Origin: Thermodesulfobacteriota bacterium
GTDB lineage: Bacteria; Desulfobacterota_D; UBA1144; Nemesobacterales; Nemesobacteraceae
DNA length: 64,000 bases
Direction: 5' to 3'
Assembly (NCBI GenBank): GCA_965202785.1
Contig: OZ241855.1
Coordinates: 1,216,001-1,280,000 of the forward strand
Shown here one piece after another: positions 1,299 to 10,842 of this stretch. The notes under the pieces were generated by a model. It was not told the origin of the DNA. It did no database searches and saw only the letters and a list, made by a program, of their open reading frames with translations. Both the position numbers and the translations under genes were made by a program. Positions within the stretch are counted from its first letter, which is position 1. Each line of letters opens with the position of its first letter.

Positions 1299-1350
1299 TC
1301 ATGTGATAACCTTTCCACCGGGTTTTCTTACCAGTTAAAATTACCCGGCA

Positions 1351-2595
1351 ATGTGTGTTGAGATAATCACAACCGGAAATGAGATAATGAGCGGTCTCAC
1401 CCGGGATACCAATTTCAGCTGGGTAGCCGCGGAACTGTCCTCATCCGGTATTGAGGTTAAGCACCACTGCGCGGTCGCCGATGATCTTGACGATCTTCTC
1501 GCTTCTTTCGCTACGGCATCAAAGAGAGCCAGATTTGTAATAGTCACAGGAGGGCTTGGCCCCACCGAGGATGATCTGAGCGCGCTTGCCGCCTCGAAGT
1601 TTCTGGGAACTCCCCTTGTTTTTAATCCAGCGGTCTATGGAGACATCGCCCGAAAACTTAGGAGTAGGGGAAGGGAGCCCAACATCCATCATGAAAAACA
1701 GGCCATGTTCCCTGAAAAAACGGCGGTTATTGAAAATCCCGTCGGTACGGCCGCAGGGTTCAGTTTTGTTTCCGGCAACTCGAAATTCTACTTTCTTCCC
1801 GGTGTCCCGAGGGAATTCCGGCAGATGTTCAGAGAACATGTTTTCCCGGATATAAGTGGTGTTGCGGAAAAGGGAAGCATCCTGCGCGTGAGAGTGCTCA
1901 GGACCTTTGGCCTGGGCGAATCCGAGGTGGCGGAAAAACTGGAAGGCTTCTCCCCCGAAGGGGTGGATGTCGGGTACAGGATCCGCCTGCCCGAGATCCA
2001 TCTGCGTCTCACGACCTCGGGTCATGATGGCGAGGTGCTGGATTTGCTTCTGCGCGATGCCTGTGCGCAGGCGAAAGAAAGACTGGGGGATTTTCTCTTT
2101 TCCCAGGAGGACGAACCCCTTGAGGAGGTGACCGCGGCTTTGTTGCTTGAAAAAGACCTGACCCTTTCTGCCGCGGAGTCTTGCACAGGAGGGCTTTGCT
2201 CGAGCCGCTTTACGGACATTCCCGGAAGTTCGGCTTACTTTCTGGGCGGAGCGGTGGTATACAGCAACGAATCAAAGGAGAAGCTTCTCGGGGTAAACGT
2301 GGATACGCTCACCAGGTTCGGCGCGGTGAGCGAGCAGGTGGTTTTCGAAATGGCCCGTGGGGCGAGAGATCTTTTCGGAACCGATATAGGAATTTCCATA
2401 TCCGGGATTGCGGGTCCGGGAGGCGGGACCGCGGAGAAGCCCGTGGGCACCGTGTGGTTCGGATTCAGTCACCCGACCTCGGGGACTTTCTGCGAGAAAC
2501 GGAATTTTGCCGGAACCAGGGACGAGATAAAAAACTTTGCCGCTTCCACAGCCATCGATATGGTTAGGAAGTTCTGCCTTGATTATGTAGGATAG
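1351..2595 (+). CDS. cinA: Competence/damage-inducible protein A (MoCF-like domain plus PncC NMN deamidase)
   Basis: TGNEI..G..DTN, TGGLGPTEDD, LPGVPRE, AESCTGG, SGIAGPGGG..KPVGTV. Confidence 0.95.
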   Translation: MCVEIITTGNEIMSGLTRDTNFSWVAAELSSSGIEVKHHCAVADDLDDLLASFATASKRARFVIVTGGLGPTEDDLSALAASKFLGTPLVFNPAVYGDIARKLRSRGREPNIHHEKQAMFPEKTAVIENPVGTAAGFSFVSGNSKFYFLPGVPREFRQMFREHVFPDISGVAEKGSILRVRVLRTFGLGESEVAEKLEGFSPEGVDVGYRIRLPEIHLRLTTSGHDGEVLDLLLRDACAQAKERLGDFLFSQEDEPLEEVTAALLLEKDLTLSAAESCTGGLCSSRFTDIPGSSAYFLGGAVVYSNESKEKLLGVNVDTLTRFGAVSEQVVFEMARGARDLFGTDIGISISGIAGPGGGTAEKPVGTVWFGFSHPTSGTFCEKRNFAGTRDEIKNFAASTAIDMVRKFCLDYVG

Positions 2596-2639
2596 TAGTT
2601 TCAGAATCCTAAAAAAACCGAAACGGAGATTAAGACGGA

Positions 2640-3671
2640 ATGAGCGATCTTGACGAGAAGAACAAGAATATAGATGTAGCTATCAGCACCATAGAGAAGC
2701 AGTTTGGAAAGGGTTCCATAATGAGACTGGGGGAAGACGCTTCCCTCTCGGACATTCCGGTTATTACCTCGGGTTCCCTTGGACTTGATATAGCGCTTGG
2801 AGTCGGGGGGTTTCCCAGGGGAAGAATCGTCGAAGTTTACGGTCCGGAGGCCTCGGGCAAGACCACCATAGCGCTCCACGCAATCGCGGAAGCCCAGAAG
2901 GCCGGCGGAATAACCGCATTTGTCGATGCCGAGCATGCTCTTTCGACAAGCTACGCGGCGGCACTTGGGATTAAAGTGGAGGACCTTCTTATTTCGCAGC
3001 CCGATTTCGGAGAACAGGCCCTTGAAATTGTCGATACTCTCATAAGAAGCAATGCGGTTGACCTCATAGTGCTTGACTCGGTTGCGGCCCTTACCCCGCG
3101 CGCCGAAATCGAGGGGGAGATGGGAGACACTCACGTAGGTCTTCAGGCAAGGCTTATGTCGCAGGCGCTTCGCAAGATAACTGCTAACGTGAGCCGCTCG
3201 AAAACCATAGTTATTTTCGTTAACCAGCTTCGCATGAAGATCGGGGTTCCGGCGTACATGAACCCCGAAACCACAACCGGGGGTAACGCGCTTCGGTTCT
3301 ACTCGTCGGTGAGAGTTGACATAAGGCGCATTGGATCTCTTAAGGACGGCGACCGTATAATTGGCAACAGGGTCAGGGCGAAGCTTGTCAAGAATAAAGT
3401 CGCTCCGCCTTTTAGGGAGGCGGAATTCGAGGTGATTTTCGGAAGGGGAATATCAAAACTCGGGGAGCTTGTGGATCTTGGAACCAAGTTCAACGTGGTA
3501 AAGAAAAGCGGAACTTGGTATTCCTACGAAGGCGAGAGAATAGGACAGGGCAGGGAGAATTCCAAAAAATTTCTGCACGAACATCCGGAAATTCGCGAAA
3601 AAATAAGAAACGGGATCATAGAAGCCTCGGGGATAGGTTCTTCTGAGGAAGTGGAAACTTCGAAAAAATAA
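2640..3671 (+). CDS. recA: Recombinase A
   Basis: GPEASGKTT Walker [33 protein letters not shown]. Confidence 0.99.
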
Positions 3672-3980
3672 TCTCTATTCTGTTGTCTAGATAAGAATTT
3701 AGCATTTTTAGATTAAGAGAGAAGTGATTTCCTTATTGAGAAAGAGAATCCACACAGTCTGTTTCAGAAATAAGACAGTCTTAAACATTTATTTATTCGC
3801 TTCTTAGCTGGGTAGTTCATGACTTAGTATTCAAGTTTGAACCCTGACTTTGCAAGTGGGTTTCTATCAAGATAAAAAACAAAATAGACCATTATCCTCG
3901 AGAATGTCTCAGTCTTAGAATACCGAATAGAGTTTTATTTACTGCTGAACCATCTGCGATGCTTAAGGGTTAGATCTAAG

Positions 3981-6548
3981 ATGAAATATATAAAAGGAAA
4001 AAAGTTTGTGCGAAGTGTTGAAGATCTCAACCGCGGAGGCGGCCAATCTTCTAAAGTGGCAGATAAGATATTTGCTGCTATAGGAAAGTTAGGTATCGGC
4101 AAAGACCCCTTCAAAGGTTTTAAGCTTACGAGACACGGTGAAAGCCGCATTAAGAACTGTCGAAAATATGATCTGGGAAATGGCTGTCGGCTTATTACTG
4201 TGGTCAAAGATGGAAATTGTTTTTTGCTTTACGCCGGTTCTCACGATGATTGTGATAAGTGGCTTGACAGGCACAGAGGTATTACTCCATCCGTGAATAA
4301 TGATGGAAATATTGTTGAAACGTTTCAATCTAATAATCTTGATCCGTCTATTCGGATAATAGGCAATTCCGATTCTTCGCATGGAAAACTTTTTGAAAAA
4401 CTTGAAGATAAAGACTTTGATTTTCTAGTTGAAGGTGTCTCTTGGAGAATCGTTAATCAAATAACAGATCTGGAATCAATCAACGACGAAGATGAAATCT
4501 ATGAAGTTGTCAAAGATATAGAAGATGAAGACAGGCGGAAAGCAATTTACGATACCTTCGTGAAGCTTAGGCAAGGTGACATCAAAGCTGCCGTTAATTG
4601 TGTGGCTTCTTTACGTGGTGATATTGTTTCTATTGGATCTGATACTGAAGTTAAAAATAGCGATGATTTCCATATTATTACAACAAATTCACCTCGAGAG
4701 TTAGAACAATTTGAATATTACATTCGCAATGCTGATTATCGGGACTGGATGATGTTCATGCATCCAGAGCAGCAAAGAATGGCAACTGCTGAATTTTCCG
4801 GTCCAACCAAACTTACCGGAGTGTCTGGGTCCGGCAAAACCTGTATTGTGGTAAAACGCGCTATCACACTTGCTGAACGTTATCCGGATGAAAAGATTCT
4901 CGTCTTGACTCTGAACCGCCCCTTAGCTGGCCTGATTCAAGATCTTGTTTTGAATTGTTGTGCTTTTCCAGAAGTGCGAGGCCATATTAAGGTAGCACCT
5001 TTTTTTGAGCTTTGCCAAGAATTTCTGGGTGAATTCGAACCGGAAAACAAAAAAACTTATGATGATCAGACGTGGAAAACGCTTGAACACATTGATGATG
5101 TATGGAGGGAGTTTTATAGACTTGAACTTAATAATAGGGATGCGGAGTGTATGTTGCCCGTTCATGATTCTCTTATATCCCAAGGTATTGACGCCGAGCG
5201 TTACATACGAGAGGAGTTTGACTGGATTAGAAGTGCTATGAGTTATGGTCAACGTGAAAGGTATCTAGGCGGAATTGAACGTTCAGGAAGATCCTATCCT
5301 TTACTTAAAGAATTTCGCTCTATGTTATTAAATGGTCTCGAAAAATGGGAACATAAAATGCGGGAAATTGGGATAACCGATTATTTGGGAGTTGCCACGG
5401 CTCTTTACCGCCATAGGGATAGATTACAACCGACTTATAGATGTATACTCATCGACGAGTGTCAGGACTTTGGCACGATTGAACTTGAACTCGTAGTGGC
5501 GCTTGCTCAAGACGGAACTGATAACCTCTTTTTTTGTGGAGATGCAGCACAACATGTTTCGTGGAAACATCAGTCTTTTAAAGATGCAGGTATTTCTTTG
5601 CCTGGGGCCCGTTCAAGGAAAATTGATCAAAACTATCGCAATAGTCGTAATATCTTGCAGGTAGCCTATGAGATCCTCTGTAACAATCTTACTGAAGAAA
5701 TGATTGAGAAAGAAGATTTCGAGATACTTGATCCGAAATTTGCCAATTTCGGTGGACCGAAACCATTACGACTCAAAGCAAGATCGCTTGAGGATGAAAT
5801 AGCATACGCAATTGCTTATGCAAGATCGGAACTCGAAGGTTATCCAAATCGCAAGGCGTGTATCGCTATCTGTGGTTACACCCTTCAACAAATACAAGAA
5901 TTGGGCAAGAGGAACAGTCTCCCCGTTCTTGAAGGTACTCTAAGCATTGAAAAAGAGCCACTTTTTCTTTCAGATCTAGAGCAGACGAAGGGTTTTGAGT
6001 TCGATTTGGTATGTATAGTGAATGCAGGTAAAGGGGTAATTCCTAACCTTGCAACGCCCTCGCACGAGCAGTTCAGGGATTTGTCTAAGCTGTATGTCGC
6101 TATGACTAGAGCGAAACTTAAATTAATACTTTCTTATTCTGGAGATCCTTCTCCTTATCTTGAATTTAACAGAGCGGAAGAGTACTTTCGCTCCGAGATG
6201 TGGGAGGATTCTTTCCACGGGGAGAAAATCCTGAAGCTAGGTGTGCCACCGAATTTAGATGAATTGCACGAGAAGCATTTACGGTACGATTTGCCGTTGT
6301 TTGACAAAATGAAGATAGAAGAGTTTCTCTATACTCCTCAAGCCCGCGGACTTTCACTTAGGCTAATCAGAAAACTCCGGGATTTGGTGAAAGGGAAAAC
6401 TCGAAACAAGAAAAATCCCCTTATAAAGTGGCGAGTGCTGTCTGAAATTGCAGAAAAAGCAATTGAATATCCAGATGAGGCCCGCAAACACTTTGGATCG
6501 GAATACGAAGAATTTCAGGAACTTGTAGAGCGTCTAGGTCTTCACTAA
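3981..6548 (+). CDS. SF1 (UvrD/Rep-like) helicase with N-terminal RelE/YafQ-like domain; candidate defence gene
   Basis: Helicase motifs GVSGSGKT, LIDECQD, GDAAQ, NYRNS, KGFEFD, LYVAMTRAK. The first ~100 aa end in RLITV..FLLYAGSHDD. AT-rich relative to its flanks. Confidence 0.8.
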   Translation: MKYIKGKKFVRSVEDLNRGGGQSSKVADKIFAAIGKLGIGKDPFKGFKLTRHGESRIKNCRKYDLGNGCRLITVVKDGNCFLLYAGSHDDCDKWLDRHRGITPSVNNDGNIVETFQSNNLDPSIRIIGNSDSSHGKLFEKLEDKDFDFLVEGVSWRIVNQITDLESINDEDEIYEVVKDIEDEDRRKAIYDTFVKLRQGDIKAAVNCVASLRGDIVSIGSDTEVKNSDDFHIITTNSPRELEQFEYYIRNADYRDWMMFMHPEQQRMATAEFSGPTKLTGVSGSGKTCIVVKRAITLAERYPDEKILVLTLNRPLAGLIQDLVLNCCAFPEVRGHIKVAPFFELCQEFLGEFEPENKKTYDDQTWKTLEHIDDVWREFYRLELNNRDAECMLPVHDSLISQGIDAERYIREEFDWIRSAMSYGQRERYLGGIERSGRSYPLLKEFRSMLLNGLEKWEHKMREIGITDYLGVATALYRHRDRLQPTYRCILIDECQDFGTIELELVVALAQDGTDNLFFCGDAAQHVSWKHQSFKDAGISLPGARSRKIDQNYRNSRNILQVAYEILCNNLTEEMIEKEDFEILDPKFANFGGPKPLRLKARSLEDEIAYAIAYARSELEGYPNRKACIAICGYTLQQIQELGKRNSLPVLEGTLSIEKEPLFLSDLEQTKGFEFDLVCIVNAGKGVIPNLATPSHEQFRDLSKLYVAMTRAKLKLILSYSGDPSPYLEFNRAEEYFRSEMWEDSFHGEKILKLGVPPNLDELHEKHLRYDLPLFDKMKIEEFLYTPQARGLSLRLIRKLRDLVKGKTRNKKNPLIKWRVLSEIAEKAIEYPDEARKHFGSEYEEFQELVERLGLH

Positions 6549-6704
6549 AAAATGTTCGAATTGCTGGACGAAGTGAAATTAATCAATTGGTAATACTCAG
6601 TTTCAAGGTAGTTGAAGCGTATTTTTAGGTCTGGTGACCGTTTAACCTATTATGCTTCACAGATGTTAGGGGTGATTTCAGCTTTTCTGTTTTGAGGGAT
6701 ACAG

Positions 6705-7391
6705 ATGAAAATTCTGGGAATCGAAACGTCTACTTTCTCGGGAAGCGTGTCAATATCCGATGACGATGCGCTTCTTTGCGAATATGTCTTCAACACCGGT
6801 CCGAGGCATAACGAGGTGCTTATTCCCACGATCGAGCGGCTTCTTTCGGACTGCGGGCTCGGAAAAGATGATCTGGATGCGGTCTGCGTGTCAGTGGGTC
6901 CGGGTTCTTTCACCTCTCTTCGCATAGGGGTCTCCACGGCGAAAACCCTTTGTTATTCCTTGGGAACCGACCTCGCGGGAGTTCCATCCCTTGAAATTCT
7001 CACGTCAAATGCGCTTTGGTGCGGAGATGACGTGTGCGCCATGACCGACGCTGGCAGAGGGGAGGTCTTCTTTTCATTTTATGATTCCAAAGGCGAAGAG
7101 ATAAACCCCGCGGAAATCGCCACACCGGAGTCTGTATGCGCCGGAGTGAGAAGAAAGACCGTTTTTGTGGGCAGCGGAGCCCTGCTCCACGAAAATCTCA
7201 TACGGGATTCCGTGGGGGAGAGAGCCGTGTTTCTGCCTGCGAATCTGAACACCCCGAGGGCGTCTGGCTGCGCGCTTTTGGGGAGAAAAAAGATTCTTTC
7301 CGGACATAAGGACGATCCCTTCACTCTAATTCCTTTCTATCTTCGCCGCTCCGCTGCGGAACGCAAAGCGGTATCAGCGGAAGAAAGGTAA
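6705..7391 (+). CDS. tsaB: tRNA threonylcarbamoyladenosine biosynthesis protein TsaB
   Basis: MKILGIETST, GPGSFTSLRIG, C-terminal PFYLRRSAAE. Confidence 0.95.
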   Translation: MKILGIETSTFSGSVSISDDDALLCEYVFNTGPRHNEVLIPTIERLLSDCGLGKDDLDAVCVSVGPGSFTSLRIGVSTAKTLCYSLGTDLAGVPSLEILTSNALWCGDDVCAMTDAGRGEVFFSFYDSKGEEINPAEIATPESVCAGVRRKTVFVGSGALLHENLIRDSVGERAVFLPANLNTPRASGCALLGRKKILSGHKDDPFTLIPFYLRRSAAERKAVSAEER

Positions 7392-7498
7392 AAATCTTTT
7401 CCCCTAGTGGTCTTGAAGTTGTACGCACGCGGTGATAAATTAAGCGGATGGGTTGTTGGTACTCCACATTTTAAAAACAACCAGGGAGATATAGTAAA

Positions 7499-9211
7499 AT
7501 GGCCAAGATGCTCGGCGCACAGATGTTCTTTGAGACGCTTCTTCACCAGGGTATTGACGTGGTCTTCGGACTGCCGGGAGGTTACGTTCTCAAGGTCTAT
7601 GACGTGATGACCGATTACACCGACAGGATAAATCACGTGCTGGTGAGGCATGAGCAGGGGGCTACGCACATGGCCGACGGGTACGCAAGAGCTTCGGGAA
7701 AACCGGGAGTGGTTCTTTGCACCTCGGGTCCTGCGGCAACCAACACCGTTACCGGTATTGCGACGGCGCAGATGGATTCATCTCCCATAGTTATCTTTAC
7801 GGGACAGGTTCCGACTCAGTACCTTGGAAGCGACGCCTTTCAGGAAGCCGATCATATCGGCATAACAAGACCCTGCACGAAACATAACTACCTTGTACGA
7901 GAAACCAGGGATCTTCCGAGAGCGATGAAAGAGGCTTTCCACATAGCCGGCACCGGAAGACCCAGCCCTGTTCTGGTTGATATGCCAAAGGACGTTCTCA
8001 TAGGAGAAGACGAGCTTGTAATCCCCGAGGATCACGAGATAGATATCAAAGGTTACAAGCCCACTACGAGGGGAAATCCTTCGCAGATAAAAAGAGCGGT
8101 GGAGATGCTGCTTGCCTCAAAGCAGCCCGTTATTTATTCCGGGGGAGGAGTTATCTGGTCCGGGGCTACGGATGAACTGCTTGAGTTCTGCCACCGGCTT
8201 CAGATACCTGTAGCTTCAACACTCATGGGCCTTGGGGGTTATCCGGCGAGCGATCCTCTCTTCATAAGCATGCTCGGGATGCACGGTTCCTACGCCGCCA
8301 ATATGACAGTTACCGAATCGGACCTCGTTATCTCGATCGGCGGACGGTTTGATGACAGGGCTACGGGCGGGAACTTTGATGAGTTTGCTCCCAACGCGGA
8401 GATTATACATATAGATATAGATCCCTCCTCGATAGACAAGAACATAACGGTTCAGTGTCCGATAGTAGGGGATGCCAAAGTTGTTCTGCGCCAGATACTC
8501 GATGCTCTCCCCGGGGAGATTGACCTTGAGGGAAGGGAATCCTGGCTCAGGCGGATACGGGACTGGAACGAGAAGCATCCGCTCACCTATTCCCAGGGAA
8601 GCGAGAAAATTCTCACGACCTACGCCATAGACACGCTTTACAAGCTCACCAAAGGGGACGCCATAATAGTTTCCGACGTAGGTCAGCACCAGATGTGGGT
8701 GGCCCAGTTCTACAAGTTCGAAAGACCGAGAACCCATCTTACCTCAGGGGGCCTGGGAACCATGGGATTCAGTTTCCCTGCGGCTATGGGAGCGAAATAC
8801 GCAAGGCCTGACGAACAGGTTATATGCGTTGCCGGCGACGGAAGCTTCCAGATGAATTTCCAGGAGCTCGCGACTGCGGTTGAAAACAATCTGGATCTTA
8901 AGATTATAGTTTTCAACAACCGTCACCACGGAATGGTAAGGCAGTGGCAGACCATGTTTTTTGAGGGCAATTTCTCGGCATCTCGGTTTGAAGTGCTGCC
9001 GGATTTCGTGAAGCTCGCAGAAGCGTTTGGAGCCCGCGGCCTTCGGGCGGTGAAGCCCGAGGAGCTTGAGCCCACTCTCAGGGAAGGCCTCAACACTCCG
9101 GGAGTTGTTCTCATGGAGATAGAAGTCGATTGTACGGAAATGGTTTATCCGATGATAGCCCCCGGTGCATCGATGGACAACATGATAATGATGCCCGCGG
9201 ATCTTGCCTGA
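7499..9211 (+). CDS. ilvB: Acetolactate synthase, large subunit
   Basis: RHEQGATHMADGYAR, DVGQHQMW, SGGLGTMGF, GDGSFQM..NN TPP-binding motif, GMVRQWQ. Confidence 0.96.
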   Translation: MAKMLGAQMFFETLLHQGIDVVFGLPGGYVLKVYDVMTDYTDRINHVLVRHEQGATHMADGYARASGKPGVVLCTSGPAATNTVTGIATAQMDSSPIVIFTGQVPTQYLGSDAFQEADHIGITRPCTKHNYLVRETRDLPRAMKEAFHIAGTGRPSPVLVDMPKDVLIGEDELVIPEDHEIDIKGYKPTTRGNPSQIKRAVEMLLASKQPVIYSGGGVIWSGATDELLEFCHRLQIPVASTLMGLGGYPASDPLFISMLGMHGSYAANMTVTESDLVISIGGRFDDRATGGNFDEFAPNAEIIHIDIDPSSIDKNITVQCPIVGDAKVVLRQILDALPGEIDLEGRESWLRRIRDWNEKHPLTYSQGSEKILTTYAIDTLYKLTKGDAIIVSDVGQHQMWVAQFYKFERPRTHLTSGGLGTMGFSFPAAMGAKYARPDEQVICVAGDGSFQMNFQELATAVENNLDLKIIVFNNRHHGMVRQWQTMFFEGNFSASRFEVLPDFVKLAEAFGARGLRAVKPEELEPTLREGLNTPGVVLMEIEVDCTEMVYPMIAPGASMDNMIMMPADLA

Positions 9212-9579
9212 TACCGCGCTATGCTTTCCGGGCCGGACTCAAGGTTCTTTCCCCGCCTTCATATATGCTTTTCTGATTGCTGCCATTGCTAAGCCGGCCA
9301 ATGCTGTTTACATAAGTCTGTTGTGTACGCAGATGGCCGTCGGGTTCTGGAAGAAAAACCGCGGGTGGTCGATTCAATCGGCGTTTTAATCTGTCCGATA
9401 TTGTTTCCGGACTTACGCATGAGCCCTGAGAACATCATCGATGTCCGAAAGAATCCTTGAAATAGGCTCAGTTTGGATGGCGGTTAAAATTTAATTCCCT
9501 TCCTGCGCCCTCCTCCTGTTCCTTGAACTATCCGTTCTCGCGGGCAATAATAGTGAGGCAGTTTCTTTAGGACCCTGAA

Positions 9580-10842
9580 ATGAAAAACACCCACTCGGTT
9601 CTGTATGCTTTTATCCTGATCTGCATTCTGGCTTCTTCAGGTTGCCAAAGCAATGACTGTGCGGATGCTTCTCTCTGCATAGGGGTGCTCATCCCCGAGA
9701 GGATTTTTGACGGCAGTTATGACAGCAGACGACAGGCGGTAGTTTCGGCCGTAGAAGATATCAATGCCGCAGGCGGTGATATAGAGCTTGTTTTTGGCCG
9801 CGACACTGACCGTTCTTTTGATTCTGATGCTCTGAGGAATGTTCTGAACAGGGGAGTCGACGGAATAATAGGTCCGACCAGTTCCGCTGATTCCGTGAAT
9901 CTCGTGAATGATCTTGTCCAGGCGGGGATGGTGGCGATATCACCCTCGGCCAGTTCGGTTGAAATAAGCACTTTCGCTGATCGCGGCTACTTCTTCAGAG
10001 TTATTCCATCGGACGCGTTCCAAGCACCCATACTTGCGAAACTGATAAGGCAGGCCGGGGGGAAACGCGCGGCCATACTGTTTCGTGACGACAGTTACGG
10101 AAGAAACCTTAAGGACGGTCTTGTCGAATCCCTTAAACAAGTGGGAGTAAGCTCGCTTGAGCCTGTTGAGTACGGGGAAGGTGCCGAGGCGGCGGTAAAT
10201 GCTGTAGTCGATGCAGTAAACACGGAGGATAACCCTGTAGACTCCGTGGTTCTCGCGCTGTTCCGTGAAGGGGGAGCGAATCTTATGGCAAGCATGCTGA
10301 AGAGGAAGGAACTGAATGGAAAAGTGAAATACTACGGAGCGGATTCACTCTCGATTGAGAGCTTTGCCGAAATAGTTGTCGCCCTTGACCCAGAAGCGCT
10401 TTCGCTTGAGGACATGGAAGGTTTTGTGACCACCATCGCGGGCCCTGATCCCTGCAGACTGGAAGACAGGCAGGAAATTTTTGATGAAACGGTGAGATAC
10501 GCAAGGCAGATATACGATGCTGTTGCGCTGATGAAACTTGCGTCCATTAAAAGCGCATCTTCTGATCCCGCCGTGTATGTCAGGGAAATGACAGGGATAA
10601 GCAGGGACGGAACTAAGTGCAGGACTTATGCTGAATGTGCAAAATTTCTCACCGACGGCGACAGTACCAACGATGATATCGATTATTACGGTTTTTCAGG
10701 CGAGATTGATTTCGATGCTAACGGCGACGTAACAAAGGGTTTTTACTACGTACACACTTATGATGACATGGGCGGAAGGCCTGACCCTGTTCTCGTTGAC
10801 CTGGAAGGGAATCCCGCAGGTGAGTGCGAGGCGGACGACTGA
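9580..10842 (+). CDS. Branched-chain amino acid-type ABC substrate-binding lipoprotein (LivJ/K-like), orphan
   Basis: Lipobox-like SSGC after a hydrophobic signal; INAAGG, IIGPTSS, ISPSAS, FFRVIPSD..Q, YDAV, GFSGEIDFDANGD. Confidence 0.85.
   Translation: MKNTHSVLYAFILICILASSGCQSNDCADASLCIGVLIPERIFDGSYDSRRQAVVSAVEDINAAGGDIELVFGRDTDRSFDSDALRNVLNRGVDGIIGPTSSADSVNLVNDLVQAGMVAISPSASSVEISTFADRGYFFRVIPSDAFQAPILAKLIRQAGGKRAAILFRDDSYGRNLKDGLVESLKQVGVSSLEPVEYGEGAEAAVNAVVDAVNTEDNPVDSVVLALFREGGANLMASMLKRKELNGKVKYYGADSLSIESFAEIVVALDPEALSLEDMEGFVTTIAGPDPCRLEDRQEIFDETVRYARQIYDAVALMKLASIKSASSDPAVYVREMTGISRDGTKCRTYAECAKFLTDGDSTNDDIDYYGFSGEIDFDANGDVTKGFYYVHTYDDMGGRPDPVLVDLEGNPAGECEADD

Follow-up and report, generated by a model that had tools for sequence, protein, structure and literature searches.

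A foreign RelE-fold::UvrD-type helicase gene between recA and tsaB of a Thermodesulfobacteriota bacterium: a stand-alone relative of ArmD and candidate defence gene

What is the role of a solitary gene that separates recA from tsaB in the genome of a Thermodesulfobacteriota bacterium? The gene in question, P0001 (3981..6548, plus strand), encodes a protein of 855 amino acids (aa) and lies in a stretch of 64,000 nucleotides (nt) of contig OZ241855.1 (assembly GCA_965202785.1, positions 1,216,001 to 1,280,000), referred to here as the window. A preliminary description, made from the sequence alone, had read the product as a RelE/YafQ-like nuclease fused to a superfamily 1 (SF1) helicase, and had proposed that it constitutes a one-gene anti-phage system. 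In the computational analysis reported here, the protein is resolved into a RelE-fold domain, an acidic linker, a UvrD-type SF1 helicase and a helical tail. The explanation that we favour, with moderate confidence, is that P0001 was acquired horizontally, stands alone and belongs to a large family sister to ArmD, the last component of the ARMADA type II system, and that it most likely serves in defence against phages or plasmids.

The location of the gene gives the first part of the answer, since P0001 was acquired horizontally. It is an uninterrupted open reading frame (ORF), with an ATG start and zero internal stops in 855 codons, and it is carried by a foreign segment of 3,049 nt (3656..6704) that stands in place of the spacer of about 100 nt found between recA and tsaB in relatives. 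The gene and its flanks had already been described as richer in AT than their neighbours; the insert has a GC content of 40.0% vs 51.3% in the remaining window, and the lowest value among 220 other 3,049-nt pieces is 46.9% (standard deviation 1.8%). The region 2640-7391 was compared by BLAST with 30 relatives, and the recA-tsaB gap was measured in 18 relatives of the genus. It spans 83-126 nt in 16 of them, 242 nt in G005 and 9,034 nt in G003, so that a short gap (83-242 nt) is seen in 17 of the 18. In junction alignments with G014 and G011, similarity ends at the recA stop codon and resumes about 10-20 nt before the tsaB ATG. The RecA C terminus reads ...EEVETSKK here (window 3640-3671) and ends right after ...EEAE in G014 and G011; as the insert starts at the recA stop codon, the final RecA residues were rewritten by the insertion. 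No integrase and no direct or inverted flanking repeats were found in or around the segment 3656-6704.

Alleles with and without the insert have also been recovered from sequencing runs. Contigs of runs X1 and X5 present an empty site, in which position 3655 is joined to 6705 via 107 other letters, and their similarity of about 91% indicates that they come from a related population. In run X1 the empty-site contig and the insert-bearing contig have like depths (16.2 against 16.4), meaning that carriers and non-carriers share one sample. The insert itself recurs with zero differences in contigs of X1 and X2, and a 21-kb contig of run X3, from another study, extends across it with 112 differences. 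Within the genus, a full-length homologue is present in 2/25 genomes, namely that of the window and G006, whose copy (65% identity) lies at a different location and adjoins genes for a HerA-like ATPase and a methylase. G005 retains a decayed remnant (L005, G005:C1:1036673-1036933), which is 74% identical to residues 433-519 and holds two stop codons. Another decayed copy occurs at L089:1311-3164, where an in-frame stop after residue 94 splits the gene. Vertical inheritance, on which the preliminary description had asked to be judged, is thus not the pattern encountered: two genomes of 25 carry the gene, one more keeps a remnant, and empty sites exist. A different cargo, of 9 kb, occupies this site in G003, which is the closest relative and has a recA 95% identical (L101, G003:C6:9000-19900, 1311-10085), which encodes the type I restriction-modification (R-M) proteins hsdR, hsdM and hsdS, a 573-aa ATPase (AAA_15/AAA_21/DUF3696) and a 313-aa ORF without an assigned family. 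This R-M cargo marks the recA-tsaB site as a small defence hotspot in the genus.

The second part of the answer comes from the N-terminal domain. Residues 1-100 (3981..4280) fold as a RelE/YafQ/YoeB-type (BECR) domain in an AlphaFold2 (AF2) model, as had been anticipated. An alignment was built from the first ~112 codons of the window gene and of 43 homologue loci (44 sequences), and the model of residues 1-110 derived from it reached a pLDDT score (predicted local distance difference test) of 91.7. It consists of a strand, two helices, four strands and a final helix (E2-5, H9-18, H21-35, E48-50, E60-66, E69-76, E79-87, H88-97, where E denotes strand and H helix). In Foldseek searches against the PDB, all 18 matches at E<=0.001 were toxins that belong to the RelE/ParE superfamily (HP0894, HP0892, YafQ, YoeB, RelE and HigB), with ParE coming just below this threshold. 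VIA, a structural alignment independent of Foldseek that covered 48,161 representative chains, placed E. coli YafQ on top (Z 9.5, root-mean-square deviation 2.9, 88 aligned residues; model 1-93 onto chain 4-92), followed by RelE from Methanocaldococcus jannaschii (Z 9.4) and HP0894 (Z 8.3). YoeB (Z 7.0; model 1-89 onto chain 1-84), Cami1 (Z 6.4) and the ParE toxins (Z 6.0-6.5) score lower, the last of them below the RNase-type members. VIA scores under 8 are common by chance; three rows exceed this value, and nearly all of the top 26 belong to one superfamily.

Conservation within this domain is concentrated in a few polar positions. T50, G53, E54, R56, K62, R70, L71, H88 and W94 are invariant in the 44 sequences and D64 is nearly so, in a domain whose mean column identity (51%) is close to that of the entire protein (52%). 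The stretch that had first drawn attention to a RelE-like ending, RKYDLGNGCRLITVVKDGNCFLLYAGSHDD, corresponds to residues 61-90. Its histidine, H88 of a G-S-H motif, falls at the place of H87 of YafQ and H83 of YoeB, if one goes by where the aligned ranges end and by the sequences of the E. coli proteins, in agreement with the proposed likeness to a catalytic G-[ST]-H, and R70 stands opposite R65 of YoeB by inspection of the E. coli sequence. We take E46, R65 and H83 of YoeB and H87 of YafQ to be catalytic residues; their positions were checked on the E. coli sequences. That E54, R56, K62, R70 and H88 are invariant points more to an active site than to a scaffold. The domain is basic, as described before (22 K+R vs 11 D+E, isoelectric point (pI) 9.8), and it is followed by a linker of pI 4.35, a charge pattern usual for a toxin and its antitoxin. 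Pfam searches with residues 1-260 gave sub-threshold matches only (DUF2482, E 0.084, and Gp49). A CREG_beta-barrel match in 10/44 N-domains (E>=0.0038) was judged to be noise because the fold differs.

The remainder of the protein is a helicase with additions at both ends. The core (residues 256-724, 4746..6152) is of the UvrD/Rep/PcrA-type SF1A class and holds all the motifs, including Walker A (K286) and Walker B (D492/E493). Pfam recognizes UvrD-helicase at residues 263-526 with 48 bits against a cut-off of 23, UvrD_C at residues 638-720 with 54.3 bits against a cut-off of 25.6, and no family above its cut-off on residues 1-255 or 725-855. In a full-length alignment of 50 homologues (44-88% identical), Q264 of the Q motif, G280-T287 (Walker A), D492/E493/Q495/D496 (Walker B), G520/D521/Q524, N551-N554 (NYRN), K670-F674 (KGFEF) and T709/R710 are all invariant, which indicates that the motor is intact and bears out the earlier statement that the ORF possesses a complete UvrD-type motif set. 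Foldseek with the full-length AF2 model (pLDDT 85.8) ranked UvrD, PcrA and Rep highest (E 5e-17 and weaker). P0001 is nevertheless none of the orthologues uvrD, rep, pcrA or helD, since all of these NCBIfam equivalogs score far below their cut-offs. Between the N-domain and the core, residues 101-255 (4281..4745) form a linker domain with a beta-hairpin and acidic helices, collinear with that of ArmD; in the full-length model the hairpin and helical domain extend over 101-269. The linker gave zero Pfam families above cut-off and zero named atlas matches.

The C-terminal tail (residues 725-855, 6153..6545) is mostly helical in the model (732-851) and is conserved, with a mean identity of 36%, in an alignment of 33 homologues. 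The preliminary description had called it an unassigned tail of ~110 aa, and it is indeed unassigned, with a length of about 130 aa: a profile search of PDB sequences and Pfam gave no match, and the atlas gave unnamed clusters only. Structural and profile searches had been suggested for both ends of the protein; structural searches resolved residues 1-100 as a RelE/ParE fold, and profile searches left the tail without a PDB or Pfam match. In the ESM Atlas, the tail and linker scored 0.77 and 0.89 to unnamed clusters, which are leads only. A helix-hairpin-helix guess for the tail was dropped after hhalign to a neighbour with an RNA polymerase alpha C-terminal domain gave a probability of 0.1%. 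Variants of about 1,050 aa occur at seven loci (L069, L071, L076, L062, L079, L080 and L087), with a C-terminal region of ~310 aa that does not resemble the tail of P0001 and falls into no Pfam family, and the L026/L027 lineage adds a DuOB domain (PF22557, E 6e-45), after which two DUF488 genes follow. Variation within the family thus seems to reside in the C terminus.

The combination of a RelE-like domain with a UvrD-type helicase links P0001 to ArmD. According to passages of the preprint that describes it (bioRxiv 10.1101/2025.09.15.676423), ArmD of ARMADA type II (armABCD) is a RelE-like::UvrD/GajB-like helicase, the system protects E. coli in a non-abortive manner and requires all four genes, and the Walker A mutant K266A of ArmD loses protection. 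As outlined in those passages, the operon comprises armA (a BrxHII-like SNF2 protein), armB (a PglX-like methylase), armC (a YprA/DUF1998 helicase-nuclease) and, as the last gene, armD. Passages of a second preprint, on enterohaemorrhagic E. coli, report that the armD deletion has the mildest defect (10.1101/2025.09.22.677730). E. coli Sakai ECs_5264 (704 aa) served as the ArmD reference. It presents the same order of RelE-like domain, linker and UvrD-type SF1 core as P0001. The full-length profile of the P0001 family matches E. coli ArmD in hhalign with a probability of 99.9% (E 2.4e-35), the 639 aligned columns pairing residues 28-729 with 27-701, and BLASTP finds 25% identity over 530 aa (E 2e-37), the overall identity being 25-26%. 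The Walker A lysine K266 of ArmD corresponds to K286 of P0001. The invariants of the ArmD family include R62, D64, R68, H88 and W94, and the positions common to both families are a basic residue at 62, D64, R68/R70, H88 and W94. The ArmD N-domain likewise remains below the Pfam cut-offs (ParE_like, 13.4 bits).

Nevertheless, P0001 differs from ArmD in several respects. E. coli ArmD ends at the match to residue 729, and the listed ArmD-family proteins mostly measure 702-750 aa, whereas the P0001 family adds the tail of ~130 aa. In a quick IQ-TREE analysis of 61 rows, 41 tail-bearing sequences separate from 18 of the ArmD family, each group with a value of 99 in the Shimodaira-Hasegawa-like approximate likelihood ratio test and with branch lengths of 1.43 and 1.59, and P0001 falls outside the ArmD clade; the outgroups are long-branched, which makes the root of the tree unsure. 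Genes armA, armB and armC are absent beside P0001, which is flanked by recA and tsaB, and the neighbourhoods of its family vary. Its own genome (96% complete, 1 contig) gave 0 MZB/DUF1998 matches, and hence has no ArmC-type gene. Literature searches, which did not cover the supplements of the ARMADA preprint, returned no stand-alone ArmD-like form. Two loci of the P0001 family have ARMADA-like contexts at separate places inside the tail-bearing clade, neither of them with the gene in the published ArmD position. In L012 the order is YprA-type (MZB), SNF2, methylase (Eco57I-type) and then the family helicase; in L068 it is SNF2, methylase, the family helicase, an AbiE pair and a 2,098-aa DEAD/MZB helicase.

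How common this family is, and in which company it is found, was examined in larger collections. A word-indexed search with the whole protein matched, at E<=0.001, 558 clusters formed at 90% identity, with almost every one of the 120 listed being full length; a profile of the N-domain retrieved 630 representatives at 50% identity among 1.84 billion proteins. By their source names the members belong to Pseudomonadota, Binatia and Thermodesulfobacteriota. A word-pattern scan of genome contigs, with patterns derived from one sequence, returned 2 loci only. In plasmid and phage collections there was no close homologue, every match being below 60% identity and about 25%. One of the phage matches is a lone 756-aa gene of the temperate Vibrio phage PQ189353.1 (L110, 9097-11367), which aligns with residues 2-722 at 25% identity (E 1e-57); it is placed between the lysis and replication modules, adjoins genes annotated as Shedu SduA and RelE-like, and bears the record label GajB_3. 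Free-standing N-domain proteins were sought among 10 short ones, which turned out to be singletons or small clusters and mostly fragments. Contigs of no more than 1,370 nt carry six of the ten, no contig is recorded for three, a 6.1-kb contig carries one, and the split copy in L089 is also among them; as most are fragments, they provide no evidence of a free-standing form of the N-domain.

The neighbourhoods were analysed in 82 homologue loci, with ORFs called by a simple longest-ORF script, and their 373 neighbours were compared by all-against-all BLAST. No neighbour family was present in more than 6 of the 82 loci, from which it follows that there is no conserved partner or antitoxin gene. 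After removal of 12 near-duplicate loci (L022, L025, L035, L037, L040, L042, L047, L070-L073 and L082), 70 were left; in 61 of these, one or more ORFs of >=100 aa lay no farther than three genes away, and the 197 proteins thus collected were scanned with Pfam. By reading of the Pfam names, a defence gene lies within 3 ORFs in 22/61 loci (an uncontrolled count), and in 13 of the 25 loci with at least four scanned neighbours. The usual background of such neighbours is presumably well under 10%. The genes include type I, II, III and IIG R-M systems, the BREX components PglZ, BrxL and BrxB, a DISARM/ARMADA-like set of MZB, SNF2 and Eco57I-type methylase, and also GmrSD, McrBC, HamA (Hachiman), NERD, AbiEii, AAA_21, HerA and HNH. 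As regards defence islands, a further point on which the initial proposal was to be judged, 22 of these 61 loci do place the gene among defence genes. In five further loci, transposase, recombinase or AlpA genes are nearby.

Other neighbours were recorded as well. Genes for Hsp70-like ATPases of about 600 aa recur close to the helicase gene in several loci that are not related to each other, at L029:5784-7550, L030:3191-5017, L085:3653-5458, L045:1774-3606 and L056:10944-12359; four of them group by BLAST, and that of L056 has a weaker Pfam match. At L055:3434-6382, a 982-aa ORF adjoining the family member weakly matches the T4 Gp23 major capsid protein (E 1.7e-6).

These features can be assembled into a working scheme. 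The UvrD-type motor would load, at the expense of ATP, on foreign or aberrant nucleic acid, for instance intermediates of phage replication or recombination, and the variable C-terminal tail might help to select the target or a partner. The basic RelE/YoeB-type head, with its Glu-Arg-Lys-Arg-His constellation (E54, R56, K62, R70 and H88), would be either an RNase-type effector or a module for contact with RNA or the ribosome. At rest the acidic linker may mask this head, which the motor would then license.

Several observations weigh against this interpretation. Sequence methods do not see the kinship of the head with RelE: the profile of 44 sequences retrieved 0 toxins from PDB sequences by hmmsearch (3 unrelated matches, E>2), the best Pfam toxin match is Gp49, with 14.4 bits against a cut-off of 23.9 and in 1/44 members, and in hhalign the probability was 0.2% when YafQ and YoeB of E. 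coli were each used as a single sequence. The claim made for the head is consequently one of a shared fold and a plausible active site, and not of demonstrated homology or activity. Even against the ArmD family, the N-domain alone aligns weakly (E 0.0033, probability 9.7%), and the equivalence of the catalytic residues was read from the ends of the ranges and by inspection rather than from a superposition at residue level. The counts of 22/61 and 13/25 were obtained without a control family, and related loci are not independent. In 9/70 loci an R-M-like operon on the same strand ends directly upstream of the gene (<=70 nt away), its last gene being a methylase in L012, L029 and L068, a type III Res in L024, L063 and L066, BrxL in L014 and L076, and McrC in L081; such a placement means that the gene may be an accessory and not a system. 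Moreover, the requirement of ARMADA for all four genes, its non-abortive action and the mild effect of the armD deletion, as reported in the preprint passages, argue against a self-sufficient effector that kills by blocking translation.

The last two points lead to an alternative that we regard as rather unlikely, in which the gene would serve methylation-based systems (ARMADA-, BREX- or type III R-M-like) as an accessory, orphaned or acting in trans. It would then do nothing by itself, and in this genome it would be inert cargo or would cooperate with restriction genes that the host encodes elsewhere. The dependence of ArmD on ArmABC, according to the same passages, fits this explanation, as do the nine downstream placements, the YprA-type (MZB), SNF2 and Eco57I-type methylase genes of L012 and L068, and an Eco57I-family match 230 kb away in the own genome. 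However, most loci lack such an upstream gene and the partners differ by locus, the own genome has zero DUF1998/MZB matches, the ARMADA-like contexts occupy two separate positions in the clade, and the ORF of P0001 is intact, with all its motifs conserved. A second alternative concerns the head, which could be a non-catalytic module that binds RNA, the ribosome or a protein, or a ParE-like inhibitor, so that the protein would function, in the manner of GajB or UvrD, solely as a helicase or translocase. It is consistent with the lack of sequence similarity to active RelE families, with the wide differences in activity among members of the fold, ParE toxins included (as described in parts of PMC11980606), and with the preprint passages, which report no test of RNase residues in ArmD. 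We consider it improbable, given that the invariant polar residues E54, R56, K62, R70 and H88 are partly common to ArmD (R62, D64, R68 and H88) and that the best structural matches are RNase-type toxins. The least probable explanation is a housekeeping or repair helicase that by chance lies beside recA and acts, for example, on stalled transcription-translation complexes. UvrD-family helicases do work in repair, and P0001 follows recA in the same orientation, across a spacer in which a search found no terminator-like site. Against it stand the presence of the gene in 2/25 genomes of the genus, its strong difference in composition, the empty-site alleles, the type I R-M cargo at this site in G003, and a separate UvrD-type helicase-like frame of 747 aa that is matched elsewhere in the genome. 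A defence function of a stand-alone ArmD relative continues to be the explanation that we favour.

The immediate surroundings of P0001 are simple. On the left are cinA and recA (2640..3671, plus strand; Pfam RecA, 437 bits), and on the right a tsaB-like gene of the TsaB/TsaD family (6705..7391, plus strand; Pfam TsaD family, 100.6 bits) followed by the gene of a 570-aa thiamine-pyrophosphate enzyme. The upstream spacer within the insert (3672..3980; 309 nt) is AT-rich (34% GC), and searches of it for a promoter-like site on the plus strand and for a terminator-like site found neither. An Rfam scan of the insert gave zero RNA families at E<=0.1. Both spacers contain solely unconserved ORFs of 21-29 aa, besides a 90-aa antisense ORF that overlaps the start of P0001, so the gene does stand alone between recA and tsaB with no antitoxin gene, as had been noted at the outset. 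Elsewhere in the genome, a 95-aa frame (L104, G000:C1:163168-163362, minus strand) resembles YoeB_toxin with 19.4 bits, below the cut-off.

A bolder version of the defence hypothesis can be put forward tentatively, as a possibility that we rate well below the general one. The tail-bearing RelE-fold::UvrD family might provide immunity with one protein that suffices by itself, and might represent ArmD in a free-living, ancestor-like state. In it the variable C-terminal domain would sense a phage cue, the motor would move the acidic linker and the RelE-fold RNase, once unmasked, would cut RNA; ARMADA and some R-M and BREX operons would have recruited it. If this were true, toxin, cis-acting antitoxin and sensor would be united in a single polypeptide, available as a plug-in for those operons. 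The matter is of relevance because, of the ARMADA components, ArmD is the one understood least, and the preprint passages report no test of its RelE-like head. Should the single gene protect, the coupling between a UvrD-type motor and a RelE-fold domain could be approached with it in a simple way, it would mean that ARMADA took up an autonomous module, and a common but unlisted gene would be added to the catalogues of defence systems.

Several known systems share parts of this design. GajB of Gabija is a defence-associated UvrD-like helicase, and the GajB models of PADLOC match P0001 with up to 70.1 bits; these matches are confined to the helicase core, the adjacent genes do not include an OLD-family GajA, and GajB presumably has no RelE-fold head. 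The best PADLOC 2.0 match, a NERD+UvrD candidate with 90 bits, is also limited to the core, and so the check in this database recovered the helicase and neither the N-domain nor the full architecture. The toxins YafQ, YoeB and RelE resemble the head in fold, size and basic charge, and apparently also in the position of the C-terminal G-[ST]-H histidine, and differ from P0001 in that there is no detectable sequence homology, no antitoxin gene accompanies it and its head is fused to a helicase body of 755 aa. In Cami1 (PDB 8phb) the RelE-fold region comprises residues 264-372 of a 379-residue chain (Z 6.4, a fold match only), the rest being, as we assume, the CARF sensor of a CRISPR-associated effector. 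CnuH, which we take to be a UPF1-type helicase, provides a further parallel. Parts of the article on CoCoNuT systems (PMC11090510) describe CnuH of types II and III-A as an SF1 helicase with an 'RNase toxin-like' domain of RelE/colicin D fold, detected by structure only. By this description, CnuH and P0001 both join an SF1 helicase to a RelE-fold domain in a predicted defence system, and they differ in that the RelE-like domain of CnuH has an OB fold on one side and the helicase on the other, and that CnuH is part of McrBC-type operons. The 2025 survey of RelE/ParE multidomain toxins by Gerdes (PMC11980606) contains 0 occurrences of the word 'helicase'. The RelE-like::UvrD architecture as such is not new, having already been described as ArmD; the family of P0001 presents an ArmD-like head and motor with no fixed partners.

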